From Ginglymostoma cirratum (lineage: Eukaryota): a stretch of DNA of 64,000 nucleotides. Made by a program: the position numbers and the translations under genes. The stretch is from contig JAHRHZ010000140.1 in the NCBI GenBank assembly GCA_024137785.1, forward strand, positions 20,944,783-21,008,782. The letters run 5' to 3'. Below, piece by piece: positions 1-63,187 of this stretch. The notes beneath the pieces were generated by a model. It saw only the letters and a list, made by a program, of their open reading frames with translations. It was not told the DNA's origin and searched no databases. Each line of letters starts with the position of its first letter. The stretch's first letter is position 1.

Positions 1-95
1 AGTAAATAAACACTCAAGTAATTTTATGCACCTTAAGTAGTTTATGATTGGAAAATGCAATGAATGAATTGACCCTCATTCTATTTCTTGTGTAG

Positions 96-11255: not shown

Positions 11256-11401
11256 GACAGAAATTGTTGGAGAAACTCAGCACATCTGGCAGCATCTGTG
11301 GAGAGAAAGCAAACTTAATGTTTTGAGTCCAGTGATGCTTCTTCAGAGCTCCAGTTCTGTTTTTGTTTCAGATCTTCAGAATTAGCAGTTTTTGTTTGTT
11401 T
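11256..11401 (-). mobile_element. Penelope-like short insertion, decayed hammerhead core, inverted tail
   Basis: 11-bp TSD tctaaacagat (11245-11255 / 11402-11412); shares the gcagcatctgtggag core with the other copies. Confidence 0.75.
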
Positions 11402-12139
11402 TCTAAACAGATTATCTGGTCAGGTAATGTTTGAGGGAGCTTGCTGTGTACCAATTGGCTGTGTTACGACAATGATGACTCTTCAGAAATTTTGTTTTGG
11501 CTGTTCAGTATTTTGGGACATCCAGTAGATGTGAAAGCTATGGCATAGGTGCAATCTTTTTCTTTTTATGGGGGTCTGTGACAAAGATACTATTGTTGAA
11601 ACTTTTTTTTAGAGAAATAAACTTGCTGACTAATTTGAGTTTTTCCCCTTTAACCAATAGGATACTTTGGATTAGCATGCCTTGTATTTGTGATGAATAT
11701 GAATCTACAAATGTAACAAAGCCACAGGAATGAGAGTTGGAGGGGATCTGTGTGAGTGTGGTTAACATAGCGAGTGGTATGCAGTTGAGATGTGATCTAT
11801 TTTTAGCTGCTGACAATATTTTTTAAACAGAATGGGTGATCTATTACAAAGTCACTTCGTTAATTTACCTTTAGAACAGCCTGTGGTTTAGCCAATGTTC
11901 TGTGGTGTTTATGTTGGGGAATGGGGGAAAACAGGCACCCCATTTAGTCAAATAAAATGTTGACATTTAAAATCAGTAATAATTAATGTGTGCTTCCTTC
12001 ACTCTTAACTAATGTGAGACTGCGAATGCGCATGGTTAACAGTTTCTGAAAATTTCAGTGGATCTTGGGACTTCTCTTTGATTCGGTATCAAAAGTTTTC
12101 TTTGCATATGGCCAGGCAAGTTGTTAAAGCTGTAAAAAT

Positions 12140-12775
12140 CTAAGATGTTATGTTTCACAAACAAGAGCATAACACACAGAATCAGAGGTATTGTTAAAAT
12201 TAATGCAAAGTATTTGCTAGATGACAGATGTAAAGTTTTTAGAACTTAAAATAGGCCACTACCACCTCCTATACCCCTGTCCCCACAAATCCACCTAGTC
12301 TTACAAAGGATGTTAAGACCATGGAACTGCTGAAGGGCAGTCTCACTCATATGATAGCAGCCAAGATTGGTTTTAGTTGGGAGGAGACATGAAGAAACAT
12401 TTTCTTTCATTGGAACAGCAAGTTTAAGAGGAAATCATAACAATGGCAAGAATTGAGCTGTTCAGACAGAGTGGATTCAGTAAAATTTCTCCCACTGGAA
12501 AGTCCATCCATAATTGAAGAATAAATTTTAAAAATCATCTCCAAAAGACTGAGGAGATTAGGAGGTTTTTTTTCTCTTCCGGAGCGTCGTTAGGATGTAA
12601 AAGCCTATCAGCAACAGTGGTGGAAACTAAATAGACATCAAAAGAGAAAAGGATAAATATCTGACAAAGGTAACTGTAAAGAACGGTGAATTGCGCTAAA
12701 TAGGCAACTGAGTCACATGGCTGCCGTAGGTGTGATGAGCCAAATGGCCTGTGATATGATGCCATCGTTCTGTCA
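12140..12775 (+). mobile_element. Old CR1 LINE 3' fragment
   Basis: Degenerate CR1 3' end (gatgagccaaatggcctg) and ORF2-like remnants. Confidence 0.5.
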
Positions 12776-12897
12776 TGACTTGGAGATTGTTTGGTTATGG
12801 AGTACTTCCATTAATTTTTTTTGATATTTATGTCTGGCGTCCATTGTCACAGTTTGAAATGACTCATTTTTATATATTATTTTACCTGTCCTTTTAG

Positions 12898-12996
12898 ATG
12901 TACTACAGACAACAAGTGGATAAGTTGAAGTATGCATCAGTAACAGACACGCCTGAGATAGTACAAGCAAGAATTAATGCACAGCAGCTAAGCAAT
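12898..12996 (+). CDS. NRAP: NRAP exon, super-repeat 1, 33 aa
   Basis: tag|MYYRQQVDKLKYASVTDTPEIVQARINAQQLSN|gtaagt. Confidence 0.94.
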
Positions 12997-13232
12997 GTAA
13001 GTCTCGAAAGTACCAAAATTAATATCAGGAAATGGGAAAGCATGCATTACCTAGGGTGGTACTGCCAAAAATGTGAATGAGTGATTGTTTTAAAATCGTT
13101 CCTTTTTTTTAATCTGAAACTAACTAAACTAAAGATATTTTAAAAGAGATATTGCAAAGGCACTCTTTAAGCACAGATTGATTTTCATTTCTGGCAAAGA
13201 TTTTTGGCAGGTAAAATGCACAAAGAGAAAGG

Positions 13233-13549
13233 TTAGAATTAGAATCCCTACAGTGTGGAAACAGGCCCTTCGGCCCAACAAGTCCACACCAACCCTCACA
13301 GCATCCCACCCAGACCTATCCCCCTAATCTACAAATCCCTGAACACTATGGACAATTTAGCATGTCCAATCCACCTAGCCTGCGTATCTTTGGACTGTGT
13401 GAGGAAACCGGAGCACCCGGAAGAAACCCACGCAGACACGGGGAGAATGTGCAAACTCCGCACAGACAGTCACCTGGGGCTGGAATCGAACCCAGGACCC
13501 TGGCGCTGTGAGGCTGCAGTGCTAACCGCTGAGCCACCATTACCGCCAC
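13233..13549 (-). mobile_element. HE1-like V-SINE (tRNA-derived)
   Basis: A box tggctcagcgg, B box ggttcgattcc, V-domain gtttgcacattctccccgtgtctgcgtgggtttc, CR1-like tail. Confidence 0.9.
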
Positions 13550-13619
13550 TATTTCTCAATTCAGTGGATATATTTAGTCTATTGTATTCTGTATGCGGTT
13601 TAGTTAACACAGTTTTAGT

Positions 13620-25972: not shown

Positions 25973-26865
25973 GTGAGAATGCAAACTGACTAGAACGAAA
26001 CATGTAATTTTCTGTTAATTGTGTGACTTTGGTCTTGACTGAATCATGTTCTCTGATAATAATTGTTCATGGATACACGTGAGCAATTATTTCTTAACTT
26101 GTAGGCAGTTAAAGCTCTGCCATCATAGCTGATAAATGGATTAGAATTGTGCATCTGTATTAGTAATTAGCACATTAGTGGGCTCACGTGAACAAAAGTG
26201 TGAAAGAGCTTACTTTAAATGCATTGGCACTTTAACAACATAGCAAGCCTGAGAAATGGTGTGCAAACATGTTACCGAGTTTCTTATTAATATTGCACAT
26301 TGTAGAAATGGATCACATTTCTGAGGGACTGACAAGATATCTTGTGATCCCTAGCCATGATACTGATACCACAATATGTGGCTGCAGGTTACTGGGGGCA
26401 ATAACCAGCATGAATTTATTGCATTATCTACCAGATTACCTTAACATGTGATACAAAATGTTATAGTTACTGGCAAACAATGAGCCAAGTAACAACTGAT
26501 ACAAGCTCTTAAATAGTCTGAGTGCCACTACCACACCATATTCCTGATATAAAATAAATAATTTTGGAATCCATGAACATTCTGTGGGTAAGAGAAAGTT
26601 CAGAACCTATGCAATGGTTAATAATTACTTGCCATAATATATTATCGGTTGAGAACAAACAGGAACAATTCTAAAATTGTTGAATTGCCAACAGCTGAAT
26701 GTTTGAGTATTAAAGTGAGTCACATCTGGAAGGTAATAAAGTTTGTCTGCATTAATGTCAAGTGTCTGTGAAGGATGGAGATATTTCTGCCTGTCAAAAC
26801 TGGCACAGGCCATAAGTGAGTTCAATTTCATGTTGTAAATAACATCCACAATGTGGATTAAGCAT

Positions 26866-27150
26866 TGATTCATAGAATCCCTACAGTGTGAAAGCAGGCC
26901 ATTTGGCCCATTGCTTCCAAACCGACCTTCCAAAGAGCATCCCACCCAGACCCGCTGTCCTATAACCCTGCATTTCCCGTGGCCAATCCACTAACCTGCA
27001 CATCTTTGGCAATGGGAGGAAACTGGAGCATCTGGGGGAAACCCACACAGAAATGGGGAGAATGTGCAAACTCCACATAGTCACCTGAGGGTGGAATTGA
27101 ACTTGGGTCTCTGGTGCTGAGACGCTACAATGCTAACCACTGAGCCACCT
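26866..27150 (-). mobile_element. HE1-like V-SINE
   Basis: Head ggtggctcagtggttagca, V-domain and CR1-like tail on the minus strand. Confidence 0.88.
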
Positions 27151-29048
27151 CACTGCTCAAAACAGCATCGCATGAGATCTAATACAATGCAGGGTAGATT
27201 TTAAATCGCTTCTGGACTGTAAATCTGGCTTTGCAGTTCAGGTTAAGAAAATGCTGTTGAAATAAAACAAGATAACTACAAAAATAATGGATGAGCACAG
27301 CAAGTCATTCAGTGTTTGAAAAAGAATGATAAGTTAATATTTCAGATGTGCCTTCATCGGTACAATCAATGTGGATACTATATGTGTCATAGCACAAGCA
27401 ATTTTAAAAAATACATTGGCTGCTATTGTGTTTTCAAATCCAGGATTGTGAAAAGCCAGTTGTTCAGGAAGTGACCTCTTGACTTGAATATCAACAATTG
27501 TTTTAATAGGTAATAGTTATTAAATTCTTTAGTTTACCAATATCCTGCCCAAGACCAATACTAAATTCAGAAAAGGATCAAACCAATTTATATTGCTCCA
27601 TGCATTGCCTTAACTAAGAAACAGGAACAGAGGCCTGATTGTATCACATGCTTTCATCTGAAAACAGCTAATGCAAATGGGGCTGATTGATCAAGTGTCA
27701 GAATTATTCATAAAAGATGGAGCTCCATTCGTAGGCATGAACAAAAAATGCACAAATATAGTTATACAGAGTCAGTGAACCTATTTTTGATTAAGATTTC
27801 AGTTTCATCCCAGAAAATTCTTTTTTATTTAAGAACAGTTGGAGATTTTTGGTGAAGCCACGTGATGACCATGAAATTACTTGTCCTTTGTGTAGCAGTT
27901 TAACCTGACAATAAATCTGGCTTGATGTTTCTCTTTGGTAATAAACATCAGTGACACACTGCCCTTAGCAATCCCTCAGCAACCTTTGTGTTGAAAGCTT
28001 GAGTTTGACAAGAGTTTATAAACCTAAAATGGCAAGGTGATTGACAGACAGATTAACTTGTCAGTCAAAGTGTGAGTGCTTGAATGAACCCTTTAATCCC
28101 CTCACCATAACCACGTCACCTTGTTTTGTTTTCTAGTCATTTGTTCACATTTCTTCTTCACCAGATTTCTGAAATCAAGTGATGTTTCCCCCATGCTTGT
28201 ATCTTCCACTGATTTCAATTTTAATAACCATTGTCTCATATGTGTTTTTCTGCACTTTATAAGCTCCTGTTCTTCTGTGCACATGGTTCTAAATTGCCTG
28301 TGGTAGTAAGGGAACTGTATTACACCAGGTGAACAGCCTTTGTGTGACAGGGTGTCCATAGTACTTTCCTGTTTACAGTAACTAGATACAGTATCCTGTG
28401 ATTTTAATCGAATGTTAATGGTTGAAAATAAATGATTGTCAAGGATCTAATCTCCCAAAGGCTGACATTTAGATGAATATTGAGATAACGCAAAAGACAT
28501 AATCAATGATATTAATGTGGGGTAAGCTGAATTTCCACCTTCATTTACTGCTTCAAATATAAGCTGGTGGAAATGCAAAATTTGTTCTGCCTTTCATCCG
28601 CCAATGGGCAATGAAGCTGTGCTACCAGCAAGCCCCTGGGTGACAATTTTTCTGTTCCAATTTCTCATAATATATTGTTGTTTATTCTACAGTGGCAGGC
28701 TGGTGAAAATTCTGTCACAAAATCAAATTATAACTATGTGAATAAAATATATATTTTTAAAATCTGAGAAGAGAATATTAAAATGAGCTACTTATTTAGT
28801 TGGTGGCAAACCAGGTCTCATCAACCAACATTAAATATTGAGTTTTGAATGAAACAATGTTGTCACTTCAGAAACAATTTTGAAGAAAAGGGAAGAAATT
28901 CTGATAGATAATTTTGTTTAATCGTAGTTTTAAAACTACACTATGTGTTGATTACTGTTTGTTTGATTAGACATGTATTGATGTTTGACTTGCTTTCAAT
29001 TCAAGTCCACTATTGTCAGAGATTAAATTGCACTCTTTCAACTGGCAG

Positions 29049-29147
29049 AGAAAGTACAGACAGAGAGTTGATGCGTTAAAATTCACAAGTGTGGCAGACA
29101 CTCCACAGATTATTCACGCCAAGAAAAGTCAAGATTTGCAAAGTGAT
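29049..29147 (+). CDS. NRAP: NRAP exon, SR2, 33 aa
   Basis: cag|RKYRQRVDALKFTSVADTPQIIHAKKSQDLQSD|gtgagt. Confidence 0.94.
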
Positions 29148-33322: not shown

Positions 33323-33399
33323 GTAAGTTGTATACTGTGATGCAACATCAAAATGGAAAGATGATGAGGATAACTGGAAAAACATTAACAAATTGTGCC

Positions 33400-46377: not shown

Positions 46378-46491
46378 TACAAATACAAAGAAGCATTCGA
46401 GAAGGCCAAAGGTCAGATGGTTGGAATACAAAAACTGGAAGATGATCTGAACATTTCTCATTCCGTTCATGCAGCCAGGCTCAATAGTGAT
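46378..46491 (+). CDS. NRAP: NRAP exon, SR3, 38 aa
   Basis: cag|YKYKEAFEKAKGQMVGIQKLEDDLNISHSVHAARLNSD|gtacgt. Confidence 0.93.
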
Positions 46492-47360
46492 GTACGTAGG
46501 AAAAGAACTTTAAATTGTTTTGAATTCATGTATTTTCAATCAAACGTGTAGTGTTGTCTATCATATAGCCAAGGCTGGAAGCTGTGTGGGGAAGCTATAC
46601 GATGTCATGACATCAATATTGTGCAAAATAAGACAAGAGTACAAGTTATTGCAGGATCCCATTTCATAATTCAGATTGTACTTCTGCTTTTGATCTAAAG
46701 TTGTCTGATATTGAAAGAAGTCATGGAGTTAACCATGTGCCTATAATCTTATACCAAGCAGCACTCAGTCATTGATCATCACTATAATTTTCTGAAACCA
46801 GTTGCATACTAAGCATGATGCATTTTAAATGTTTCTATTCAACACAAGCTCATTGGGAATAATGCCATGCAAGACCTTTATGTTTAGGTCATTGAATATT
46901 TCCACCCTGGCGTTCTTCTCTATCCCAGATCTAAGGGAGTTACAATTTCAAAGTTCATCATTAAGCTCTTCAATGTCTGGGCATGAATCAATGGAGGAAG
47001 AGAAGAATAAGGTGGAAGTCTTGGATACTGCCAGTCCTGCCTGTATTCTTGTGAAGACTTTACCTATTGTCCCTATTACAGGCCCAGCTCCTGATCCGTC
47101 TCTTTGGGGAAAGCCCAGTATTCTTGGAATAACATAATGGAGATGAAGACCAAACCTCATGAGTCTCCTTCCCCTTTCCCTTTACATAGTGCCTGAGAAT
47201 TAAATGTCTTATAACCTGTATTAAAATGAAATATCATTGTTGTAGAATTATTAATATATTGAGAACAAAAAATGTTCTGCATTATTATTTTTGTTAACAA
47301 ACATGCCTTTCATGAAAAATGTTTGTGAGTTGTCATTATTGCTTTCTGCTTTTAAACTAG

Positions 47361-47558
47361 TTGATGTACAGAAAAGATTTTGAGGAGACAAAGACTAACC
47401 TCCATCTACCTATGGATATGGTGAACCTTGTCCATGCTAAGAAAGCCCAAGCTTTAGCCAGTGACCAGAACTACAGACATGCCATCCATCATTATACGAC
47501 ACTACCCAATGACTTGAGAATGCAGTGGGCAAAGCATGCCTATGATCTACAGAGCGAG
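47361..47558 (+). CDS. NRAP: NRAP exon, SR3, 66 aa (two modules)
   Basis: tag|LMYRKDFEETKTNLHLPMDMVN...QWAKHAYDLQSE|gtaact. Confidence 0.94.
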
Positions 47559-48445
47559 GTAACTTTACAGTCACACTTTTCACTTTTTCTTTTATTGACA
47601 TTTCTCCCATTTTCATGATTCTCTTCTGAAGCACTGCATCGAGCTGTGGTGTAGGTTCATGGGTGTAGGCTGTCCTCTGAAGTATTGCCCAGATTATTTC
47701 TTTCTTATGTAAGCCTTTTTATCAAGTGGAAGTTGAGACCAGTTCTTTGCTAACTTTACCTGCATACATAGGTAGTTTCTCTGGCAAGCAATGGTTGGTG
47801 ACTGAGAACTGTAAAGCTCAATGATTTTTGTCCCTCCCTCTATAAAGCTGTAGTTACTGATTCAGGTGGGATTAATAGGCAAAGCTATAGTGGGAATTTT
47901 AACCACAGGCCTTTTGAATCTATACGCCAGCATGCTAAAACTGAAGAACTTAGTCTTTTATCTTGTAAAGTTTCCAACTCTGTTCACCATTTTATTAAAG
48001 CCTTAGCAAATAAATAGAAAATGTCTGACTACTGTTCATAGAAATTTGTAACACGCCTTAGAAAAGCACGAAACAAATAGAAGAACTGGAAGTAGGTAAA
48101 TTCATGAACTCCTTAAGATTATTTCCGCCTATGAATATAAAGCAATTTAGTGTTTGGTTGTTCCAGAGAACAGAGGCTTGCTGGAATTTGTAGGGGCAGA
48201 GCCTGTAATATTCTGATTCCAGAAGATAAGGTCACTGAATCGCAGAATTATCCCCCTGTACATTCACTGCTCTCAGGAGGGTAGCAACGATGTAAAGGCA
48301 TGGTTAAACAATATTCTTTTTCAAAATGTATAACTGCTGAGAAGCTACTGAATCTTGATTTACTAGTCATCCTATAATTTATTGAACGTATCATTTAGTA
48401 CACAGTGATAATGATCTTTATTAATAGTCTGCCTTATTTTAATAG

Positions 48446-48550
48446 AACCTTTACAGATCTGACCTAAATTTCATGAGAGGAGTGGCTTGGATTTCAACAG
48501 GGGCTTTGGGAATTGAAGGAGTGAAGAGAGCAACTGCCCTCATCAGTGAG
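48446..48550 (+). CDS. NRAP: NRAP exon, SR3, 35 aa, FMRGVAW motif
   Basis: tag|NLYRSDLNFMRGVAWISTGALGIEGVKRATALISE|gtgggc. Confidence 0.93.
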
Positions 48551-49573
48551 GTGGGCCATTTTTTTTATGGGGCCAGTTTTGTTTGCAGTACATGACATGT
48601 ACTCTCCCTGTTATTTTTGCCATGTCACCACATTCAGTAATTCACTTTCACGTGGAGTTAAAACAAATATGTTTGGGCAGAATTGAGTATCGTGTTATGA
48701 TTTTTCGAATGTGTTCTCCCAAGGAGAATTGGTTGAAACAAGAGTGACGTTTTTAAAGAAAAGTCAAACAATTTGCCCTTGAAAGAAAAATTAATTCAAG
48801 CATTCCCAAAAGGTTTTGGTTAATGAGTTTCTCGTGAAATAATATCCTCAAAGACTTCTTAGTTGTATCTGGGACTGGAATCACATGCATTATGTGCACC
48901 ACTGCCCTTCTAGATTGACCCATCTAGATTTATTCAGGTCTGTAGATGAGTTGTTAAATATATATCGGTTAGCAGTCACCAAAACATTTCAGGCTGCTCT
49001 CTGTCTGTCTTCCTGATGCATGTGGAAGCATTGGCATCTGATCAACTTGTTGGTGGTGGTTGGCGAGGGTGACAGGTGTCAACTCCAATATAGGTTCAAC
49101 TATAAAGTATCATGTGTAAGGGATGTAATGCAAACATTAAAAACAACTAATCCTTAAAGCCCTTCTGGAAGCTGGTATGTCACTCTCACTGGGGATGCCA
49201 CCCCCCAGTCTTATACCAAAATTCTGAATGACAGGGAATCTGTTGTCCTTGATAACCCATCGCCTCAGCCCTTGTCTCAACCTGGTTCCACTCCTAAGCA
49301 TCATTGGCATTTTATATATTGCACCGTACTCCCAACAAAAGTTTCCTGCATAACCCAGGAGCTGCATATCTGGGTCCTGACCAGGTTTTTGTATCCTAAT
49401 ATTTAGCCTATCTGTGTTGTCAATTTTAATTAATAATTGTGATTTTGAACAGCTGGTCTTGTAATAACAGTGTGTGGTTGGACTGCAGCAATGTGTTGAT
49501 ACAGTGGCAGAGAGTGGAATTAGGGAGTGGTTGAAATGCAATAAATGATTGCTTTCTGTTCTTTTTTTTTCAG

Positions 49574-49672
49574 AAGAAATATCGACAACATCCATATTCA
49601 CTAAGGTTTACGCAGGTGACAGATTCGCCTGACTTGACTCGCGCAAAATTGAGCAACATCATCGCCAATGAG
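49574..49672 (+). CDS. NRAP: NRAP exon, SR4, 33 aa
   Basis: cag|KKYRQHPYSLRFTQVTDSPDLTRAKLSNIIANE|gtatgt. Confidence 0.93.
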
Positions 49673-50447
49673 GTATGTTGATTTCTGGAACTTGATGGAA
49701 TTTCACTGTGGAAACCTCAGACCTAGAGAATCACAGAGAGACTCCTGTGGCATTTCCTCTCAAAACACTACTGCTTTCCAAACCAGAAATGGATGGCAAC
49801 AGCTGGTCAAACCTGGTTGCTGTGTTTTAAAAATAATCTTTATTATTGCCATTATGGCTGAATGAGTCAACCTTTCTTTATCTTCAAATTGAGGTGTTCT
49901 AGCAATTAATATTTCCTGAATCACTGTCTTAGCAGTGTATCAATGTTAAGATTGGCCCTATGACATGGGCAAACAGGAACAGAGATCTGAGATTGGTGGA
50001 GCTATAAAAGAACTCATTGCCTCACAGAATTTTAAATAAAGTGGTCTTTAAAATGTGACACAATGAGTCTTGGGAATCTGAGAACATTGCAGTGGGAGTT
50101 CTATGAACACTGAAGTTGGTTCTGGAATCCAGGTGGAGTAGGGATGTATTAAGGGTATGGTCTAGGTGTTTGAGAAGACTCAGGTAGGATAAGGATTGAG
50201 ATGTGGGGCCTAGTGTTAGGGGTGGTGCTGTGATTTGGCTGCATTGAAGAGAAGATCCTGGAGCAATTGGCATAATCAGAATCTAGAAATCTTGAGAATT
50301 ACTGACCTCTGTAATTATTGGTTGAAGAGGAAGTCTAAAAGAGTCTGTGGAAAGAAAAAAGAACAGACAATCTGCCACAAGAAGTGAAGTGGTTGAACAG
50401 GAAGTGTGCACTAAGTGCAGGACCCTTAATAAGAAATACCATTTATT

Positions 50448-50662
50448 TGACAAAGCGCTGGAGGATCTTAGCAAGTTTCGTAGCATCTGTGGAGAGAAAC
50501 AGAGTTTATTTTTCAAGTCCTGATATGACTCCGCTTCTAAGAAGAGTAACATTATACTCAAGACAATAACTTTGTTTCTCTCTCCACAGTTGCTGAGCGA
50601 CTTGCTGAGTTTTTCCAGCACTTTCTCTTTTCATTTCCAATCTCCAATGTTTGCAATATTCT
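50448..50662. mobile_element. Older fold-back Penelope-like insertion
   Basis: Inverted arms gctggaggatcttagcaagt...ctgtggagagaaacagagt / actttgtttctctctccacag...acttgctgagtttttccagc. Confidence 0.7.
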
Positions 50663-51329
50663 CTGAATCTGTGTATCTTTATATCTTCCTGATGGTGGCT
50701 TGATCTTTCTCTGTTTTTCTGCAAGATTCGTTTGTGCCCTGATGTCTGTACCCTAAGAGGTTTCTATCCCAACCTCACTGATGTTTTCTATCTGTGCCCA
50801 AATTTCTGTATATGACTCCTATTTTCAGTGCCCTCTGAGAAATTTTTCTGCGTCTTAAAGCCATTCAGTCTGTACCCTGCTGTTTCTTTGATTGCTGATC
50901 AGTTCATCTTTCACTGTAATTCTTGTGGGTTGCCAAGGGGTTTTTTTTCTCTGCTGTACTGTCTTTTTATTCTATTTGTGCTTCTATTTATCTTTCCTGA
51001 TGAATGGGAAGGAATGCCAACCAATACCAGCTTGTGGTTAGGATAGTTCATTGCCATCATCCTCTTTCCTTGACTGAATCTAAAGGCCAGTGGTAATGGA
51101 GTCTCTTTAACAAGAGAAGGCTTTTGTCCTAAACATGTAGCTTGTACCTAATAGTCATGATGCAATAAATTGCATCATTAAGATAAAAGACGTAGGATGT
51201 AGGTCTTCACCTTACAGGATCGATGCGCTTAGATCTTCCCATATATAAAGTAGTCAATATTGTGCATGCTATCCTACATGCAGTCTTACAAGTACTACAT
51301 TACCTCCAGACATTGTCTCATTAGTGAAG

Positions 51330-52555
51330 CATAGTTTTGTATTCAAATCTGCTTGTGATAAATGATAACTTTCTATTAGCTTTCCTAATTACTCTGTGTA
51401 TCTACATATTGAGCTTTTGTGATTCATGCACAAAGACAGCCATATCCCTCTGCATTTCGGAGCTCTCAAATCATTCACTGTTAAAATGGCATGCATTTTT
51501 TTCTAGTGTTTCTGCCAAAATGGAAAATTTAAATGCTTCCACATTTTACTCCATTTGCCACATCTTTGCCTTCTCACTTAACCTAACTTTTTTGGTTTTG
51601 TAACTGCCTTGTGTCCTATTCACAACTTACTTTTTATCTACCTTTGTGTCATCAGAATGTTTGGCAACCAGATCATCCATCCCTTCATCATAATCATCTG
51701 CGGCATGGTGGCTCAGTGGTTAGCACTGTTGCCTCACAGCACCAGGGACCCAGGTTTCATTTCGCCCTTGGTCGACTGTGTAAACTCCACACAGACATTC
51801 TCCCTGTGTCAGAGTGGGTTCCCACACGGTGCTCCAGTTTCCTCCTACAGTCCAAAGATGTGCAGCCTAGGTGGATTGGCCATGCTAAACTTCTCATAGT
51901 GTTCAGGGAGGTGTAGATTAGGTGCATTAGCCGTGGGAAAGGTAGAATTATAGGGAAAGGGTAGGGGGATGCTCTTCGGAGGATCAGTGTGGACTTGTTG
52001 GGCTGAATGGCCTGTTTCCACACTGTGGGGATTCTGTTGTTCTATTCTATAATATAATTACATAAATTGTAAACAGTTGAGGTCCTAATACAATCTCGAG
52101 CACTCATTAAATTTTGCAAACATGAAAATGACCCACTTATACCTACTTTCTGCTTCCTATTAGCTTGCCAATCATCCTTCCGTACCTATATACTACATAG
52201 TGAGCTTTTATTTTGCCCAATTATTTTTGATGTGGCATCTTTATCAAATGTCTCTTGGAAATCTAAGTACTTATCCAAGTGCCCTACTATAACTTATTCA
52301 ATTACAACCTCTAACGTTGCCCTATGATAGATGTTATGATTACTGGCCTGTAATTTCCAATTCTCTTTCTCACCTCCTTTTTGAATAAAGAAGTTACATT
52401 TTCTGCCTTCTAATGGTACTGTCCCCAAATCAAGGGATTTTTGGAAAACGAGAACCAATACATCAAGCATCTCTCAAGCTGTTTCTTTAAAGGTCCTGAA
52501 AGAAGGTCCGTCAGGACCTGAATATTTATCAACTCTCAACTTCAGCAATTTATGG
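51330..52555 (-). mobile_element. CR1 RT-domain relic interrupted by a V-SINE
   Basis: Minus-strand CR1-like stretches (tttgtgtcatcagaatgtttgg; ttatcaaatgtctcttggaaatc) on either side of the SINE. Confidence 0.6.
51700..52050 (+). mobile_element. HE1-like V-SINE
   Basis: ggtggctcagtggttagcactg...ccacactgtggggattct. Confidence 0.9.
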
Positions 52556-53421
52556 AGGATGGACGTAAAGCATTGGACTGAGTTTATAGAAAGTATTTTG
52601 GAGAAAAATAGATTAGAGACCAGGGGTAGGAGGCCTGCAACCAGGGCAGAGATGAACTTAAGAATCTATTTGTGAAGGAATAGCAACATGTGGCACACTT
52701 AGGGCAGGTCGAGGAGGGTTGCATGTTTTGGCAAGCTCATGGGAATGAAGGTCAGATTGTAAGTCAGGAGCAATACTGTAAGTGAGTTATTGAAAGGGAA
52801 AATGACAGTAGTTTCTGAGAGCATCAGAAGTCAGAAAAGCCATTCAACACACAATATAAAAGGAAAGTATATCAACAGATAAAATGCAAAAGATAAGTGC
52901 TAAGAGAAAGCCTTTCCCTTGTTAGCATGAGCCTGGCAGGAAGACATCAGCTTTCATTCGTATGCCACTCTGAGAAGGGAGGTTTTCATATTATGTCACC
53001 TCACAGAACCACAAGATGTATCAAGTAGATTATGGAATTTAGAGATCCAACTACTAGTTATATCATATAACAATCATGAATTTGTTAATGAAGTCAATTA
53101 CGTTTCTCAGCAGTTGTTTGCGTATTCGTTTACAAAGTTCTTGATATACAAAGTAAGGGCAAAATTTCAATGGCTCCTTTCTGAAATTGTTGCCTTGTTT
53201 GAATACAGTTGCATAAACTCTTCCAAATCCCAAATGGCTGGCTTTCCCACTAATTGTCATTAACTGTTGAATCCCCTTAGAGTGGAAATGATTACATTTA
53301 TTCTGAAGAGTTGTTTGCTAAATGCTTGTTATTGAGTTCTAAAGTATTTATGTTACTGAATGTTACTAGATAAAGGATTAACATGATGTACAGGTAAATA
53401 TTTTCATTTTTCATTTTTCAG

Positions 53422-53526
53422 CGCCTATATAAAGCTGCAGGAGAAAATGCCCAACATCATTATACTCCAATTGTTGGCTCACCCGAACATATTCGGGCAA
53501 GGATTAATTCATCAAATTTCAGTGAG
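53422..53526 (+). CDS. NRAP: NRAP exon, SR4, 35 aa
   Basis: cag|RLYKAAGENAQHHYTPIVGSPEHIRARINSSNFSE|gtaatg. Confidence 0.93.
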
Positions 53527-53617
53527 GTAATGTTTGTCTCTTCAGAATTGGACTGATTCTCTTTAAATTCTAATTTTCTTTATTTGTTGAATTTTTGTTC
53601 TGCACTTTTCTCTGCAG

Positions 53618-53725
53618 GTGAAGTACAAACAGTCATGGCTCAACCAACAAGCTCTTGGATACAAGCTGACACTCGAAGCCATTCCCTTCCAGAGTGCAAA
53701 AGCTTCCAGGCGAATAGCCAGTGAT
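53618..53725 (+). CDS. NRAP: NRAP exon, SR4, 36 aa
   Basis: cag|VKYKQSWLNQQALGYKLTLEAIPFQSAKASRRIASD|gtaaga. Confidence 0.94.
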
Positions 53726-55739
53726 GTAAGAGGGAATCTGATTTGATGTGTAAAGTATTCATGCTACTTGTATTTGTGGCCAGTTACTTTCAAGAAAGCT
53801 GGGGGAGACTTACAGTTTGGGTACTGTGTGGGTGTGATGCCAACAGTCTGGTGCAGGGTCAGGCCTAACATTTTAATTTTGATAAGCTGCCAAACAGGGT
53901 CATTACCTCAGCTTGCTACATTGGAACATAAATCAACTGGCTACTATATGCAGGCAGATAAGCTGGTAAGAGCTGTCTGGGAGTACAAGAAAGTCTGCAC
54001 CAAATTGGCCGCTCTAACATTGTATTCTGCACTCTGTTTTGTTACACTGATGCACTTATATAGTACTGTACAGCACATAAGACAACACTGTTCACTGTTC
54101 TTTGGTAAATGTGATGGTAACAAATGAAATGAAATGGACTCAAATGTCTATGGGGTATTCTCAATGACTCTCTTCCTCTTCTTGGGTCTTACAAGAAACT
54201 CTCTCTGAAATGATCATTTGGGAGAGGTCTTTAATGGGCCTTTCAACATGTGACAAGGAGAGTGATTAGCTTGTGCAATTCATACATTATCTTACCCCCC
54301 CCTCCCCCCACCATCCCATTTTCTTCTAGATACTTGCAGTTTGGATTTCACAACTGAAGTACCATCATACTTTGATTACCCACTTGTTTGTTTTGGCCAA
54401 GACACTCACATAAAGGGCGAAGAGTTGATGCCGCAGGGAAAGGTCCCTATCAGATTTTCAATAACTGGCACTTTTTTCAGGCAAGAGGTGGGATTACCAG
54501 TAGTTGGTGCCCTTCCCCCAGTTGTGCCGCAATTTATCTGAGGTGAAATAATTAAATACCAAACAGGTAACATCTTAAAGAAAGAAAATGATGTAAGATA
54601 AAAGTTTAACTTTCTCAATTGTTAACTTTAAATGACCATGGACAATTTATCAAGTTTAACAATCAGTTTACATCATTGTGTAATGTTCCTGTAATGATTT
54701 GAATATTGTATTAATTTTTGATTTGGAGTAATGGTGTAAAATATTAGCAGTATGGTTCCAGCATTTGTGATCATTGGCAAAGGAACGGGCCCACAGACTT
54801 TCTATGAGATTTCTACTCAAACTTTATTTTGTTAGAAATCTGTTTTGGATATTACAGTGCCCTCTTTCCAGTGTTTTGGATTTGTGAGGCCAGACCAAAC
54901 AGTGTGTATCTCCATAACCAATTAATTTGAAGAATTATTAATGAGATGTGTAGACTTTGAACCAGGAAGTTTAAAATTGAATATGTAATTTAATTAAAAT
55001 CATTTAATTTAATTAAAAATATTTAATTTAATTAACATAATTAAAAATTCTGCCCAATCATGTGCAGAAGGTGAACTGGTCAGAAGAAAGATAGGTTAAG
55101 TATGAGAGGGAAAATGCAAAGGGGCAGAAATAAAGCATTTGAAACAATTATTTATTTATTTTGTTTTCCAAAATCTCCAACAAAAAGGTAAGATTTGGAG
55201 TAGTGACATTCTTCACTTGTAATAGTTCATTTTTGTGGCAGATAGTTGTTTGGCAGTAATTAATAATCATCGCATCATTGGAATTTCATTTGCATTTTGT
55301 TAGAAAACCTCTATCATCTGGAGGGTTTACTGGGTTTTTGTCAAATAAGCACAGAAGTATCATGCACTTCCTTCTGTTTTAGTGTGTCTTTCAGCAAGGT
55401 AGTGTTAAAGTGAAGTTTCTGGAGGAGCAGGACAATAACTTCCTGATTTCTGCATTTATTTTGTGAGTGCAGGTGCCTGCGGATGTTTAAATTACTCTGT
55501 TTTTTATCACGGTAATCATTGATAGCCTCACCAATATTCATACTGCATATTTGCTGCATGCACCAAATTTGCCACATGTTAAAGGAACTATGCACATTAC
55601 AGCTGATACTTTGTTCATCAAAGTGGTGGATATGACCAGTGAGGCAATTTAAGCTAACTAGAGATTAAAATATCATCTGAACACCGTGGTAAATTCAGAA
55701 CTGATACTTTACCGTTTTGAAACAGACTCGATGACATAC

Positions 55740-57000
55740 TCAGTGTTGTTATTGAGGTGACCTAGTCATGCCAGGTTTTTGTTGATTAAGCTGACTGCTT
55801 GGTCCAATGGACCTCCATGTTGGACATTGGGCACTAACATCTCAGGTACTGCTCCATGGGCGCCATCTACTCCAACTGCATGTCCGTGAACAGTGGCATC
55901 TGACCTGTGCCAGCTTCTCCAAACTCTCATGGCACTTCTGTGACCCATTTCAAGGATGCTCCTGACTTCAGTACTGTATCTCAGGCTGCAGTGGTAACTC
56001 ACAGTAATGCTGCAGCAAAGACACTGTGTCCTCAGGGACATATAGCCAGCTCATGGACTGGACCAGGCTGCATTTCCAGGCTCCTTGTTATAGCACTCAC
56101 TCATTCTGAATCTACCAAAATGCTCACAGAATCCCTGTCCTTCATTGGCCTTTTGCATTTTTATCCCTTCAGCTAGTGACAACAGGCTCACCGTGTTGCT
56201 GTATTGCTGTTCTGTTTGGCACCAACAGAAAGCCAGGAAGCTTGTTGTGGTTGTCAGCGGTCATTTGTCAAGTCAAGAGTTAGGTGAGGGGCCAAGGCAC
56301 AGTAAGTCAAGTGCAACCTCTGATATCAACAGAGGGGCTTAGAGATGGTCAGGGTGGTCAGAGTCAGGGTCCTCTTCACACAAGGGGTAAGCAGCTGAAA
56401 GAAGGACAACACATCCCCTGTTTTGAGTTTTTCAGTCCTTTGCGGACTGTTTTCCTCCTGGAATGAGAGAGAAGCAGCTATTAAGGGAGATGAAATTTTG
56501 TGGCTCAGCTGTTATTTTTGGTGAAGGTGGGGAGATGTCCTGAGTGTGTGAGCAGACAGCACAGAGGGCAGGTGAGATTAATGGTGTCGGGGATTTGGGT
56601 TGGTGACAGTGAGGGAACCTCTACACAATAGTGAGAGAGTTAGACCATGAGCCTTGGGAGGTCGGTACAATAGTACAAAGAGAGAAGATGGTAGGACTTG
56701 CACTGGCAGTGGAGAAGACTATTGACCTACTTCATATGGTGCCCTGCATTCTTGCAGATAACTGAGACTGCTCTGAACCATCTGGCAACCTTGGGTCACA
56801 TGGTCTGATGTCATGACCTGTGTTAGTTCTGGGACAAGAGGACATCCAACATGAACCATTCCATCCAGCAGGACCTCTAGGTCCCTTCCTGCAAAGCTAG
56901 ACACAAAGTTTCCCTTGCCTTCCATCTTTGGGGCGAATGTCAGGAACTATGCAGGGCAACACTGGACTAACAGTGCTTGTCTGATTGCTCAATAGCCTTT
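55740..57000 (-). mobile_element. PIF/Harbinger-like transposon relic (Myb/SANT ORF remnant)
   Basis: Minus-frame SFAGRDLEVLLDG resembles the N-terminus of Harbinger Myb-like proteins; broken frame. Confidence 0.4.
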
Positions 57001-57146
57001 TAAAGATGGACACCAGTACCAGACATGCCAGTCAATTCTGGGATATCCTGGCAGTGGCAAGTTGTTTCAGGAATAGTGCATGGTAAGAAGGGGATAGAAT
57101 TGGACAAGATGGATGCAATAGGTATGGGGTAGGTAGTTAATGAGGC

Positions 57147-57250
57147 AATATAGACAAACAGGAGGCTGGAAGAACACAGCAAGCCAGGCAGCATCTGGAG
57201 GAAAGGAGAAGTCTCCGTTTCGGGTATTACCCTTCTTCAGGACTGGTCCG
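57147..57250 (-). mobile_element. Penelope-like short insertion
   Basis: Core CUGAAGA-A-GGGU-aau-ACCC-GAAAC with mutated cleavage triplet; TSD agttaaYgaggc (57135-57146 / 57251-57262, 11/12). Confidence 0.75.
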
Positions 57251-58044
57251 AGTTAACGAGGCGAGAAAAGTCACTAAGCCTTATGGTGAAAAACACTCCA
57301 AAAGAACTTGACACAATGTTCACTCTGCCAAAAAAGGAATAAAGATTCAACCAACAATGTTTGTCTGGGAAATGTTTCAATATTGATAATGTGACCCTAT
57401 TTGCTTAGTAACTCCAGTTATAAGATGGTGAATTCACATTATAGTCTGCATATGCAAATTTAATCATATTTTGTTCAAAAGCATTTAACCATCTGATAAC
57501 ATGAATTAAACGATATTGCTAATCCAGCAAAGGAGGGATCTAATGCTTAATAGATTTAAATTATCAGGTCATTTGAATTCTTATCTTATGATGGGTTTCT
57601 GCCTCATCCTGTCACGCTGACAAGCTGTGTGGTCAATAAGAACTAACCAGGAGTTCCGCCTATCCTTATTACCTGTTATGGGTGTATTGGAAAAGTTACA
57701 TGTTTGACCATCTACCTGCTTGGCTGTGTTGTGAATGCTCCCTCCCTGGCCAACAAGCCTTGGAGTGGGTCCTGAACCCAGAACTTCAGGCTTAGAGACA
57801 GTGGTGGGGGGAGCATTACCATTAAGTCTCAAGACCTCAAGTAAATTCATCGTCCTCTGGCAGCTTATAGCTGTAAATAAAGCAAATGCCTACATTACAG
57901 ATATCAACTTCTTCTTGTTTTAAAAGTTAGGTTAAAGGCAAGGTAACTACCTGATTAGAAATGTCTCAATATGTCACCTAACCTTCCAAACAAGAAAGAG
58001 AGAAGTTGCAAGTCTTTAAATAATGATATCCATTTTTCTTTCAG

Positions 58045-58356
58045 TATCAATACAAGAATACTTTTATAAAAGAGAGGGGAAAACATATTGGTGCTCGAAG
58101 CATTTTGGATGATCCTAAGATGTTACATTGCATGCAAATTGGCAAGTTACAAAGTGAAAAGTTGTACAAGAAAGAATCGCAAGACAGCAGGACGCAATTC
58201 CACTTAACAATGGATATGGTGAATCTGGTGCATGCTAAGAATGCCCAGGCTTTGGCCAGTGACTTGGGTTACAAAAAGTTGATTCATTCGTATACTGTTC
58301 TGCCGTATGACATGAAGATGGAATTGGCTAAAAAAGCCTATAATCAACAGAGTGAG
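58045..58356 (+). CDS. NRAP: NRAP exon, SR4, 104 aa (three modules)
   Basis: cag|YQYKNTFIKERGKHIGARSILDDPKMLHC...ELAKKAYNQQSE|gtaaat; 312 nt. Confidence 0.94.
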
Positions 58357-58537
58357 GTAAATGAGCATAACAGTTTTACCATTAAATTGATGTATATCAA
58401 GCTTCAGTTGGGGGAGGAGAGGGTGATAAGTGGGCAAAGAACTGGTCAACAACCATGGAAAAGAAACTTGGCGAAGGGTGCAAATCTAGCTGCCAATTTC
58501 CAGTCAGTGGATGTTTTTGTATCTTGTTTTCATACAG

Positions 58538-58642
58538 GTGCAATACAGGTCTGATCTAAACTTCCTCAAAGGTGTTGCATGGATGGCACAGGGCTCCCCA
58601 CAGATTGAGACAATGAAGAAAGCTGGTGAACTAATCAGTGAG
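58538..58642 (+). CDS. NRAP: NRAP exon, SR4, 35 aa, FLKGVAW motif
   Basis: cag|VQYRSDLNFLKGVAWMAQGSPQIETMKKAGELISE|gtaaga. Confidence 0.94.
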
Positions 58643-58711
58643 GTAAGATCTTTAATTGGTCAGGTGCCTATAGAGTCTCTTTTCAAAATGATTGATTGTT
58701 TTTGTTTCTAA

Positions 58712-59080
58712 GACAATACCTCAAGCCCCACCCCCAGCTCCTACCTACTAACCTCATCCCGCCCCCTTGACCTGTCCGTCCTCCCTGGACTGACCTATCT
58801 CCTCCCTACCTACACTCACCTTTACTGGCTCCATCCCCACCTCTTTGACTGGTCTGTCTCTTCTCCACCTATCTTCTCCTCTATCCATCTTCTATCTGCC
58901 TCCCCCGCTCTCCCTATTTATTTCAGAACCCCCTTCCCCTCCCCCATTTCTGAAGAAGGGTCTAGGCTCGAAATGTCAAGCTTTCCAGCTCCTCTGATGC
59001 TGCTTGGCCTGCTGTGTTCATCCAGCTCTACACCTTGTTATCTCAGATTCTCCAGCATCTGCAGTTCCTACTTTCTCTGA
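58712..59080 (+). mobile_element. Penelope-like element 3' region (pyrimidine-rich tract, hammerhead core, tail)
   Basis: Longest copy of the family; CT-rich leader, then ttctgaagaagggtctaggctcgaaatgtc...ccagcatctgcagttcc. Confidence 0.75.
58950..58977 (+). ncRNA. Minimal hammerhead ribozyme-like core (sense)
   Basis: CUGAAGA-A-GGGU-cuag-GCUC-GAAA-UGUC; two C>U changes that give wobble pairs. Confidence 0.55.
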
Positions 59081-59339
59081 AATGATGAGATTCTGTTAGC
59101 TTTCAGCCTGATTTCAAACAGGAGGAGCAGCAGACTTGTCAAAGAATAGTTCTGTGAGCTCCTTACCAACCTCTCCTGCTTTGATTACTATCATTCTGGG
59201 ATTTTCCAGAAAATTTAAGTTGACACCTCCCCCCCCCCAACCAAATTATTGTCCAGCTAAGCAGAGATGCAGTCTCCAAGGTAATGCCAGATTTCTGCCG
59301 AAGTGGAAAACCTCATCTGATTTTGTATTAAGCATGCAA

Positions 59340-59965
59340 CAAATCATAGGAACGCGAGTAGCCCATTCAGCCCCTCGAGCTATTCAGTGAGACCATGGCT
59401 GATCTGTGGCCTAACACTACACACCTACCTTTGGCCCATATCCCTTACTACCTGTGTTCAACAGAAATTTATCTATTTCAACTGATTCTAGCATACACGG
59501 TCATTTGTGGAAGAGAATACCAAACATCTACTGCCTTTTGTGTGTTCAAGTCCTTCCTAACAACTCTCCTGAAAGGTCTGACCCAAATTTTTCGACTATA
59601 CCTCCTAGTTCCAGAATTCCTAGCCAGTGGAAATAGTTAATCTTTATCTACTATATCTTGTGTCTCGTGTCCTGGAGACTTCAATCAGATCACCCCTTCA
59701 CCTCCTAAATTCCAGAGAAAATGACCCTAAACTGTATAATCTCTCCTGTTAATTTAACCCTGGAAGCCCAAGTATCATTCTTGTAAACCTATGTTTTACT
59801 TCCTCCAAGACCAATATATTCTTCCGAAGGCATGGTGCCCAGATCTGTTCACAGTGCTCCAAGTTGGTCTAACCAGGGTTTTTTTAAATATCTGCAGCAT
59901 AATTTCTGCATCCTTGTACTTCAGTCCTCTAGATATAAAGGCCAGCATTCCATTAGCTTTCTTGG
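59340..59965 (-). mobile_element. CR1 3' fragment
   Basis: KKANGMLAFISRGLKYKD...TLVRP on the minus strand; CR1 tail. Confidence 0.85.
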
Positions 59966-60261
59966 AATAAATGTTGACCAATATGTATTTTGTATGTTGT
60001 GGCAAGATACTGTCAAACTTAAATACATTGCAATGAAACCTCTGTAGTTTGTTGACATTGCTGAGACCACTTATTTGATTACTGGGCAGTAATTTTCCGA
60101 ATGGATTTACAACAAATATTTTGAAGACACAATATTCTAAACATTCTTGACTGGAGGTTCCTTTTCCAACACAGATGGGGAAGAGAGTCTGTCTTACACA
60201 TGTATAACTTTCTATTTTTTTCTGGATATTTAATTACATTCTCAATTTCTTTGTTCTGTAG

Positions 60262-60360
60262 AAAAAATACAGACAGCATCCTGATACCTTGAAGTATACA
60301 AGTGTGATTGACTCTGCAGATATCATCCACGCTAAGAACAGCTATCTGCAATGTAGCGAT
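60262..60360 (+). CDS. NRAP: NRAP exon, SR5, 33 aa
   Basis: tag|KKYRQHPDTLKYTSVIDSADIIHAKNSYLQCSD|gtatgt. Confidence 0.94.
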
Positions 60361-60714
60361 GTATGTTAAGGCAGAGCTTTGAAGTATCCTTTCATGTGGC
60401 AATTATGTATTAATATATATCTAAATGCCATCTTTGGATCAAAAAAATATTTCTGCATCAAAATAAGCTAACGTTATTTGATGCAAGTGTACCAATTAGT
60501 TTGGAGAACATACTATCCATCTCCTTTTCATTTCACTGTAGTATTGAAAACAGGTGGAAATCCATGATAGCTTTTCCATGTTCATTGATAATCTATAGGA
60601 GTGAGGAAGCAGGACTAAGACAGAGAAAGCATGCATTGTCAGATTCTGTGCTGACAGTAACTTCAGTAATTAGTATTTCTTCAATGTCCCTGTCCTCAAT
60701 CAGTTTGTGGTGAT

Positions 60715-60926
60715 TGTAATGAGGTCATCCAGGTGGGCATCATAGAATATTAGTTTCCTGACTGGAGCTATTAACCTGGTCCAATCAAGGAGCCCATGCT
60801 GACAGGTATAAACAGGAGTGTCAGAGGTTCTGTTCACTCTGAGAGCTGGCTCGGTGTCAAGGACTCTCCACGTGTAAATAAAGGGTGACTTGGTGATGGG
60901 GTACCAGCCTCTGAAGTTATTTCACA
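60715..60926 (+). mobile_element. Probable solo LTR
   Basis: TG...CA ends; CCAAT 60781, TATAAA 60807, AATAAA 60877; flanks gtgat/gttat (4/5). Confidence 0.55.
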
Positions 60927-62224
60927 GTTATATGATAAAGTAAAAGCCAACAAACAAAACAACATCTTCTGTCTTCCATGGTAAAAGTCTGAACCAAACT
61001 GTGTAGCATCGTGTGGGAGGGCAATGAGTCTGAAGTAATCAGTGGGCAATAGGTCTGAAGTTGATCTTATCTTGAGGGTGAATTGCAGGTACTCCTCCAC
61101 TTGGTACCCATGGAATTTAGCCCCATTGGTATACACCTGGTCTATGACTTCCCAATAATATGTTCTATTGATTCATACTACTTAGGCATTATGGATATTA
61201 ATTTAGGATTGAATTGGACATGTCTTATTGTGGATACGTGGCACCTTGTAATATTGGATGAATACCCTCAGCAACCATTGATCACTGGAGGCAGCTGCAA
61301 TTTCATGATTGTAATTTACAATAGGGAACTAATCATTGGGATAATTTGTATATGTTCAATAGATTATAGGCTAGTTGTTGACAACTGCTTAATTGCCCAT
61401 CAGGAAAGTTTTGAAACTTTATTGTCTGTTGGACTATCCCTGTCAATTTTAGTTAATTACATTGTGGACCAGCATCTGTCAGCTAGGTTAAAAGCATCTT
61501 CAAAAACTTGCACCTTGACTCCTGTAGCTATCAATTATTTGATAATTATATTTTTAAGCTTTGACCAGTTCTAATGGTTGCTGGGCTGAGTATTGGTTCT
61601 GCCCTGTATGGAGCTTCACGAGCTTCTTAGACAATCCTTGCACTTACATTTAGCAAAACAACTGCCAAATTGTATTTCTTCTACAATGTACTTACACATT
61701 TTCCAGGTTTATTTATCAGAATAATATGTATATTTTGAGAGCTACAGAAATATCCTGAATGGAAAGTTTAGAGCTGACAATAGCTTATTCCACAAATGTA
61801 CATTTAAGGCAAAATAGTTCCAAATATTTATCACTTGCCTACGAGTGAATATTTGGAACTATCGAGCAACATTTATATTACAACTTGGTTCTCCCTTTTT
61901 AAAGTGCAGTCAATGCATTTATTCTGCTAACTAACTACTGCGTGAGTCTGAGCAATGGGACGTTTCAATTTTCAGTTACTGGTATCTTAACACTCAATCA
62001 ACAAAAGCTGCTGTAATTTTACAGTATGCACCCTAAAATCTTAGAAGGAGAATTTATTTAGTACCTATTTGATCATTTTTTTAAAATCAAGTAAAAATCC
62101 ATATACTTTCATCTTTCTCTCACATGAATGTGCAATTGGCAACTACAGCTCTTACTAGGAGAGTGTAAAATAAAAGATTAGAAGTTTAAAAGGAAATCTA
62201 ATGGGATGATGCCTTCCTTTGCAG

Positions 62225-62329
62225 AGGTTGTACCGAGCCAGAAACACCCAGTCAATGCATAGGTGTACGATACCACCTGACCATCCTGATTTCAGGCGAG
62301 CCAGAATCAATGCTTACAACATTAGTGAT
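62225..62329 (+). CDS. NRAP: NRAP exon, SR5, 35 aa
   Basis: cag|RLYRARNTQSMHRCTIPPDHPDFRRARINAYNISD|gtaagt. Confidence 0.94.
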
Positions 62330-62413
62330 GTAAGTTGTTGGATTGACTGTAGATCGATCATGGTTACTTTTTGATCGATTTTAGTATTTTTTTTCCATTG
62401 TTTGTTGATTATT

Positions 62414-62459
62414 GTACATCAGTTTATAATTGCGTGGTACATCAGTTTATAATTGCGTG
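62414..62459. repeat. Perfect 23-bp tandem duplication
   Basis: gtacatcagtttataattgcgtg x2. Confidence 0.95.
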
Positions 62460-62510
62460 AATATTAGCAATTCGTTGATTAGCTGACGTCCCTTGTGCCA
62501 ACACCTGTAG

Positions 62511-62893
62511 CATGGTGGCTCAGTGGTTAGCACTGCTGTTTCTCAGCGTCAGGGACCTGGGTTTAAATCCAGCCTTGGGCAATTGTGTGAAGTTTGCAAA
62601 CTCTGTCCATATCTGCATGGATTTCATCGGGGGCGGGGTGGGGTGGGGGTCTCTTGTTTCTTCCCACAGTCCAAAGATGTGCAGGTTAACTGGATTGGCC
62701 ATGCTAAATTGCCTCATAGTGTCCAGGAGTGTGCAGGTTGGGTGGGTTAGCCATGGGAAATGCAGGGTTATAGGGAGAAGGTGGGAGGTTGGGGGGGGGA
62801 GTGTCAGAGTTGGATGCTCTTTGGAGGATCGGTGTGGACTTATGGGCCGAATGGCCTGCTTCCACATTGTAGAGATTCTGTGATTCTATGACT
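62511..62893 (+). mobile_element. HE1-like V-SINE
   Basis: tRNA-like head, V-domain, tail gggccgaatggcctgcttccacattgtagagattct. Confidence 0.9.
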
Positions 62894-63040
62894 TATTTAT
62901 GGAGTGAACTTGTGGTAGTATTTCTGCCCCTAAGTCTGAAGGTGCAGTGTGTGAACTCAGCTGCTGAGAAGTGGAGACTAGCGTTCTACCTTTAGAATTG
63001 TACGTTACATTCAGTTATAGGACTGGACTTAATAACTCAT

Positions 63041-63187
63041 ACACAATAAAAACCAAAAGAACTGCGGATGCTGTAAATCAAGAACAAAAAGAAAGTTGCT
63101 GGAAAAGTTCAGCAGGTCTGGCAGCATCTGTGAAGGAGAAAACAGAGTTAACGTTTCGGGTCCGGTGACCCTTCCTCAGAACGTAAT
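63041..63187 (-). mobile_element. Young Penelope-like short insertion with intact hammerhead core
   Basis: Perfect 14-bp TSD acttaataactcat (63027-63040 / 63188-63201); CpGs undecayed. Confidence 0.85.
63150..63179 (-). ncRNA. Minimal type-I hammerhead ribozyme core (antisense)
   Basis: CUGAGGA-A-GGGUC-accg-GACCC-GAAA-CGUU; stem I GUU/AAC. Confidence 0.72.

Follow-up and report, generated by a model that had tools for sequence, protein, structure and literature searches.

Why do the introns of a single shark gene carry so many copies of a hammerhead ribozyme motif, and why do so many of these copies begin at nearly the same base? The question is raised by a 64,000-nucleotide stretch of the Ginglymostoma cirratum genome (assembly GCA_024137785.1, contig JAHRHZ010000140.1, positions 20,944,783 to 21,008,782 of the forward strand; hereafter, the window), which covers much of the gene NRAP. 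The original prediction, made from the letters of the window, proposed a separate, non-coding family resembling short interspersed elements (SINEs) and derived from Penelope-like elements (PLEs), which would seed ribozymes through introns at very high copy number. Judged from their genomic linkage, the repeats are the terminal 100-135 nt (minimal hammerhead, body and an optional ~35-nt tail) of PLEs that encode a reverse transcriptase (RT) and a GIY-YIG endonuclease (EN). With a probability that we put at about 0.68, the short copies would be cDNAs whose synthesis began at a tail edge in the 5' pseudo-long terminal repeat (pLTR), passed through an uncut ribozyme and ran off the 5' end of the mRNA, with head-to-head pairs arising from priming on both target strands.

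The predicted Penelope origin is supported by linkage to coding sequence in four families. Followed upstream, copies of the type found at 58712 lead into coding sequence for GIY-YIG and RT, and Pfam identifies RVT_1 (locus L017) and GIY-YIG (locus L019) upstream of the repeat. Families A (the 63041 type), B, C (the 57147 type) and E are each linked to RT and/or endonuclease sequence, with the RT preceding a C-terminal GIY-YIG in loci of all four, an order pieced together from several loci and from no single intact full-length open reading frame (ORF). Translations of three loci (L003, L016 and L019) contain a CX4CxxC linker motif of the CNRRKCYTC type, which suggests an RT-EN linker finger of the Neptune/Nematis type, common to both clades. 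The closest RT homologues (P0121-P0240) are unnamed proteins of ~800-950 aa with RT and often GIY-YIG; many of them lie on ~3-kb contigs from metagenome or run assemblies, about the length of one PLE unit, and circular forms are possible. On the other side of the repeat, 11 of 25 loci have a tail that leads directly into the ORF 5' region, and six of these also have the upstream 3' untranslated region (UTR); exact tail-to-ORF junctions number 1,341 genome-wide. The same repeat thus also stands ahead of the ORF, in partial tandems, and is the end of the pLTR.

The predicted abundance is also borne out. The sample comprised 100 stretches, each 10 kb long and placed at a round-number position of a contig with earlier matches; 36% of it was masked, and the 640 kb of readable sequence gave 179 profile matches, or one per 3.6 kb. 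Extrapolation gives 0.8 million copies in readable sequence, or 1.2 million if the masked parts are alike. The exact pattern of an intact family-B core has 73,971 matches genome-wide (control, 0), and strict minimal-hammerhead matches number 18 in the 1-Mb sample, compared with none in reversed sequence.

With positions numbered from C3 of the hammerhead core, the 3' ends of the copies fall at two places, +90..95 and +129..131, and the tail is similarly frequent in long (7/16) and short (14/38) copies. The 5' ends were taken from unmasked copies in 110 stretches of 10 kb. Of the 78 family-B copies, 37 begin within -8..0 and none within -13..-9; another 19 begin further upstream, and the remaining 22 begin within or past the core. 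Of the 36 family-A copies, 15 begin within -8..0 and one extends upstream. About half of the copies begin 3-5 nt before the ribozyme core. Among the first 100 intact family-B cores on one contig (C1), 53 are long, 6 masked and 41 short: an exact upstream pattern match identified 50 long copies, and inspection of the other 50 gave 3 long variants, the 6 masked and the 41 short. All 41 short copies match the parent for just 0-7 nt before C3.

A TATA-like motif lies 29-31 nt upstream of this shared start in all four families, outside the short copies. The best match to TATAWAW within 200 nt falls 27-33 nt before the A at -4 in nearly every long copy (66 of 67 in family B, 16 of 17 in A, 9 of 10 in E and 4 of 5 in C). 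The A at -4 is the first base of stem I, and it fits the initiator consensus, YYANWYY, in families A, B and C, with one mismatch in E.

These features suggest a run-off mechanism. RNA polymerase II would start at the first base of stem I, driven by a TATA box in the 3' UTR of an upstream partial copy. The element protein would then nick target DNA and prime internally at either tail edge, as has been reported in vitro for the Poseidon element of anole (PMC11167929). The RT would pass the uncut ribozyme and drop off the RNA 5' end after 100-135 nt, and its product would integrate alone, combine with another cDNA whose priming had taken place on the opposite strand, or return to the RNA at a point just beyond the tail. 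Longer copies would require a template that continues upstream, through tandem read-through, a circle or clean strand transfer. According to the accessible part of the anole study, synthesis in vitro initiates internally at the edges of the tail and extends both strands, the main substrate is uncleaved RNA, and the template 5' end sets product length (PMC11167929). Short copies formed in this way, hereafter stubs, are predicted to be dead on arrival, since they have neither the TATA box nor the part of the RNA that follows the tail.

Paired and joined copies bear on the last of these steps. Exact head-to-head junctions number 1,228 genome-wide, with none in the control. Among 16 unmasked pairs (12 further pairs, masked or at an edge, were left out of the count), 14 have the tail on exactly one arm, 2 lack it altogether and none has it on both arms (binomial p 0.0015). 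We examined 50 of the 1,341 tail-to-ORF junctions: 47 reach only +158..+503 and so are short pieces, not full-length elements, and about 11, judged by eye, adjoin another copy starting at -6..-3. Eighteen of the 50 reach the ribozyme 5' edge or beyond, and 12 of these 18 stop at -5..+2, two of them bordering masked bases. Junction copies that stop there imply that a template with that 5' end continues towards the ORF, and we read them as template jumps on RNA that would begin at -4. Two-unit tandems (L221, L226, L231, L242, L243, L248, L269 and others) combine a piece extending 30-370 nt past the tail with a copy that begins at the hot spot or in the 3' UTR.

A shared 5' end need not mark the start of an RNA. 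The fragments could be PLE ends whose common edge comes from RT stalling at a C-rich tract, from endonuclease cutting of the element's own pLTR at ATT, or from a splice acceptor, a group of explanations that we consider unlikely. Stalling and cutting find some support in family B, which has a C-run and ATT exactly there, and the anole enzyme prefers 5'-ATT-3' (PMC11167929, in the part available); yet family A shares the hot spot without ATT or a long C-run, and a stall caused by ribozyme structure would be expected 3' of it, near +28 or later. A splice acceptor is suggested by the CAG that families A, C and E have at this place and by the D. virilis intron that ends at helix I, whereas family B shares the hot spot without AG. 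The lack of an excess of cap-derived G, detailed below, also favors a cause of this kind, but none of the three accounts for a TATA-like motif at constant spacing.

Several results weigh against the run-off mechanism. Intact family-B cores are about half long genome-wide (36,495 against 73,971, counted with slightly different patterns), while the masked sample had suggested fewer. The four families are related, so their TATA spacing does not amount to four independent observations; the family-C motif is weak, with 2 mismatches, and families C and E contributed only 1 and 5 sampled copies. A cap-derived G before the start is not in excess (8 of 42 copies). Eleven of the 25 copies found through the ORF 5' region extend as far as the ribozyme region, but not one of these 11 starts at -4, and only two long copies (L260 and L261) start at -5. 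An extra-T junction scar occurs in 0 of 41 long copies compared with 6 of 41 short ones, which gives no support to sloppy strand transfer. Lastly, the promoter of D. virilis Penelope is internal and TATA-less, according to the part of that report available (PMC2377424).

Another explanation, close to the original prediction, is that the short copies form a SINE-like or retrozyme-like family that propagates itself from masters of its own and is mobilized in trans. We regard this as improbable, somewhat more so than a stall, cut or splice origin of the 5' end. The fixed 5' end would suit such a family, as would the direct flank duplications found at 7 of 19 solo copies and 1 of 19 shuffled pairs, but the same 5' end recurs in copies that continue towards the ORF. 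Family A is nearly all short, with 1 of 36 copies extending upstream; nevertheless, ORF-linked copies exist in every family tested, and about half of the intact family-B cores extend upstream. Internal PLE promoters exist and PLE-derived retrozymes have been described, whereas the putative TATA box here lies outside the stub, tail-less stubs would be unable to regenerate a tail, and unit tandem arrays were not seen in the window. The anole protein also needed RNA beyond its start sites, in the experiments available to us (PMC11167929). Membership of the non-LTR retrozymes was rejected: window copies are solo or head-to-head, and the two-unit tandems include sequence past the tail and resemble template jumps. 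As for the stem II subfamilies that had been distinguished in the window, the AGGU/ACCU variant rests on one decayed arm and is absent from 124 intact cores gathered from the loci examined, while the other variants checked do occur, and do so in long copies, which argues against masters of their own.

A bolder formulation is also available, to which we would give even odds: about half of shark Penelope insertions would be strong-stop products, reverse-transcribed from the 5' pLTR of a capped, TATA-driven mRNA starting at the stem I base and run off after 100-135 nt, with a dimeric enzyme using two start sites on two target strands. In that case, intermediates of the PLE cycle formed in vivo would number about a million in the genome. 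Copying of the full length would need a second step, by way of a circle, read-through or transfer to the 3' pLTR, and the ribozyme may act in that step.

The ribozyme itself has the anatomy that had been predicted. CUGANGA, GAAA, NUH, a palindromic stem III and an extra base after A9, the features of a minimal type-I hammerhead, are present in the parent families and in two window copies. As also anticipated, stems I and II covary between families: five pairs are changed on both sides, and 91% of cells are paired compared with 13-44% in slid alignments, among 16 hand-picked copies that represent about four lineages, one family-B subgroup having only 2 contiguous stem I pairs. Individual copies are less well preserved. 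In family B, G12 is changed in 24% of copies and the stem III CpG bases in 17-19%, with other core bases at ~0-4%, and 18 of 74 copies have intact cores. The pattern is that of a ribozyme constrained in parent lineages and not in the intronic copies, single copies decaying at CpGs. Minimum-energy folds of 44-nt monomers were uninformative, giving the hammerhead for A and C, alternative folds for B and E, and self-dimers without the catalytic dimer; the study of Lunse et al. 2017 is reportedly one of dimer cleavage. Copies starting at the predicted cut site (+27..32) show no clear excess (1 of 78 in B, 4 of 36 in A). A candidate subfamily with a broken stem II around 11256 was rejected, since its relatives vary at those bases and decay is likelier.

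Within the window, all nine insertions that had been named are present. The profile, built from seven window copies and applied at a cut-off of E<=1e-3 with reversed sequences as control, gives 13 matches and none on reversed sequences. Of the fainter insertions proposed, those at 24790 and 27295 were matched weakly, while that at 20130 was not detected at this cut-off and is a faint remnant by eye. The features are as follows.

84..62329, plus strand: host gene NRAP, first to last exon match in the window; the gene runs on to ~72,300.
11256..11352, minus strand: old A-related stub that has lost G12.
20130..20185, minus strand: possible very old remnant, seen by eye.
22267..22406, minus strand: family-A-like stub with tail; stems II and III decayed.
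24786..24827, minus strand: faint body-only fragment (profile E 4.5e-4).
25100..25320: head-to-head pair of decayed stubs, 25100-25223 on the minus strand with tail and 25232-25320 on the plus strand, tail-less.
27288..27362, minus strand: faint old copy (profile E 2e-5).
33400..33488, minus strand: family-B stub beginning within stem II, without the CUGA box.
41470..41565, minus strand: tail-less family-B stub with an intact minimal hammerhead (C3 at 41562, predicted cut between 41535 and 41534).
50450..50670: old head-to-head pair with decayed cores, minus arm tail-less and plus arm with tail.
57147..57245, minus strand: family-C stub with U16.1 mutated, predicted inactive.
58718..59078, plus strand: family-B PLE 3' end with 3' UTR, hammerhead, body and tail (59045-59078), 94-96% identical to copies running into GIY-YIG and RT.
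58950 (C3), plus strand: hammerhead of the preceding copy, predicted cut after 58977, with two C>U wobble changes.
58915..58921, plus strand: TATA-like motif of the same copy and putative promoter element, 31 nt upstream of the predicted RNA start (A at 58946, first base of stem I).
63041..63182, minus strand: family-A stub with tail and an intact minimal hammerhead (C3 at 63179, predicted cut between 63150 and 63149).

The insertion reported at 58712 as a mini-element is instead a 360-nt copy that includes 3' UTR. Direct flank duplications were found at 63041 (14 nt; 63027/63188), 22267 (14 nt; 22253/22407), 33400 (12 nt; 33388/33489) and 25101 (8 nt; 25087/25321), and the other five window sites tested have none of at least 8 nt. 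The flanks of the 41470 stub (41456-41469 and 41566-41579) form a 14-nt duplication that is inverted rather than direct, possibly because the run-off cDNA had switched to the other target strand. A further, high-scoring head-to-head pair (L275) lies in the last NRAP intron just beyond the window (window-relative 68,870 and 69,023).

Every copy in the window is intronic, judged from the NRAP exon matches, which invites the idea that the host keeps these hammerheads to cut or regulate NRAP pre-mRNA. We consider this highly improbable. High density and the conserved intronic hammerheads known in amniotes might suggest such a use; however, with 13 matches per 64 kb compared with 179 per 640 kb readable in the genome sample, the window is not unusually dense. 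A minimal hammerhead would also require a partner to cut, and the core decay seen in family B, with few copies intact, does not suit a retained function. The only intact cores in the window, those at 41470 and 63041, are both antisense to NRAP; the 58712 core has wobble changes, and the other window copies lack G12, stem III or the CUGA box. Solo copies are antisense in eight cases and sense in one (p 0.02, one-sided, small n). The pyrimidine tract and CAG of family A resemble a splice acceptor, and sense orientation could be selected against. The claim that ribozymes are being seeded in introns was thus overstated, given the CpG decay of cores and the lack of any fully intact one on the NRAP sense strand in the window. 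An Rfam scan, which had been suggested as a check, matched no hammerhead family in the window at E<=1 and returned four chance-level matches only.

The host gene, on the plus strand, was identified by its nebulin repeats and by one exon 98% identical to whale shark NRAP. Two exon matches, 84-230 and 10368-10517, are 70-80% identical to whale shark NRAP compared with 84-100% for later exons, and may be alignments overrunning exon edges or alternative exons; no LIM exons of NRAP were found, most of the adjacent upstream flank being masked. A CUGA..GAAA match at 10446 coincides in part with an exon match of NRAP and was set aside as chance. A second dispersed repeat of ~300-350 nt (13241-13540, 26861-27149, 43013-43293, 51695-52048 and 62502-62890) has a tRNA-like head by eye and is probably a tRNA-derived shark SINE. 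A weak Rfam match to the CPEB3 ribozyme at 63843-63914 (24.6 bits, under the gathering score of 35) is probably chance.

The PLE transposition cycle and the part that the hammerhead plays in it are the wider questions here. Elements of this type have already been published, as have the ribozyme, the tail and the inverted ends, and apart from its abundance the family is ordinary. What this locus adds is a testable link between a promoter motif, the first base of a ribozyme and the ends of roughly half of the insertions. The run-off mechanism makes a prediction of the RNA start that is precise to one or two bases, and it implies a template uncleaved at the 5' ribozyme. In practical terms, ribozyme scans of shark genomes will return 10^5-10^6 motifs, mostly dead.

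Minimal hammerheads have been reported in metazoan PLE pLTRs, mostly as isolated motifs that were attributed to truncated PLEs (Cervera and De la Pena 2014, PMC4209133). Like those motifs, the shark ribozymes are type I, with a loop-less palindromic stem III, an extra base after A9, G10.1-C11.1, a short stem I and several families per genome. In contrast, the shark copy number is far above the 4,000 of coelacanth and the 9,000 of Xenopus given there, and the accessible part of that paper mentions no sharks and describes no fixed 5' end or promoter link.

The shark elements also share the organization of endonuclease-positive (EN+) PLEs (PMC8557442, PMC3846280): an RT followed by a C-terminal GIY-YIG, a CX2-5CxxC linker, partial tandems, 8-16-nt duplications, an optional 30-40-bp tail at one end and an inverted, 5'-truncated head-to-head copy. 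The linker is defined in PMC8557442 for Neptune, which shares it with Nematis, and TATA and initiator-like motifs are described in the pLTR of Adineta Pen2a (PMC3846280). Unlike the EN+ PLEs in the available parts of these reports, roughly half of the shark insertions consist of the last 100-135 nt only, with one common 5' end. The published account of head-to-head copies is self-priming on an antisense template; a tail on one arm fits two-strand priming equally well.

Non-LTR retrozymes (PMC7229834; bioRxiv 10.64898/2026.07.22.740005) resemble the stubs in being non-coding, carrying a type I hammerhead and being related to PLE pLTRs, and the accessible text reports them in one chondrichthyan. 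They differ in being tandem 170-400-nt units with a ribozyme in each, whereas shark stubs are solo or head-to-head and are contiguous with the ORF in long copies. The literature that we searched, with most subscription journals, Repbase and Dfam outside its reach, describes neither this family nor the 5' hot spot.

The closest experimental parallel is the anole Poseidon element PAc (Frangieh et al. 2024, PMC11167929). It belongs to another clade, Penelope/Poseidon without the linker finger, and its ORF begins inside stem II, where the shark families have no conserved start codon; the available text maps neither the RNA start nor a genomic 5' hot spot. Nevertheless, the 3' ends of PAc, like those of the shark copies, fall at the two edges of the tail, ~95-130 nt beyond the ribozyme, and the study links the optional tail to two internal sites of RT initiation; in the printed PAc template, counted by eye, a TATA-like run stands 30 nt before an initiator-like A located 14 nt upstream of CUGA.

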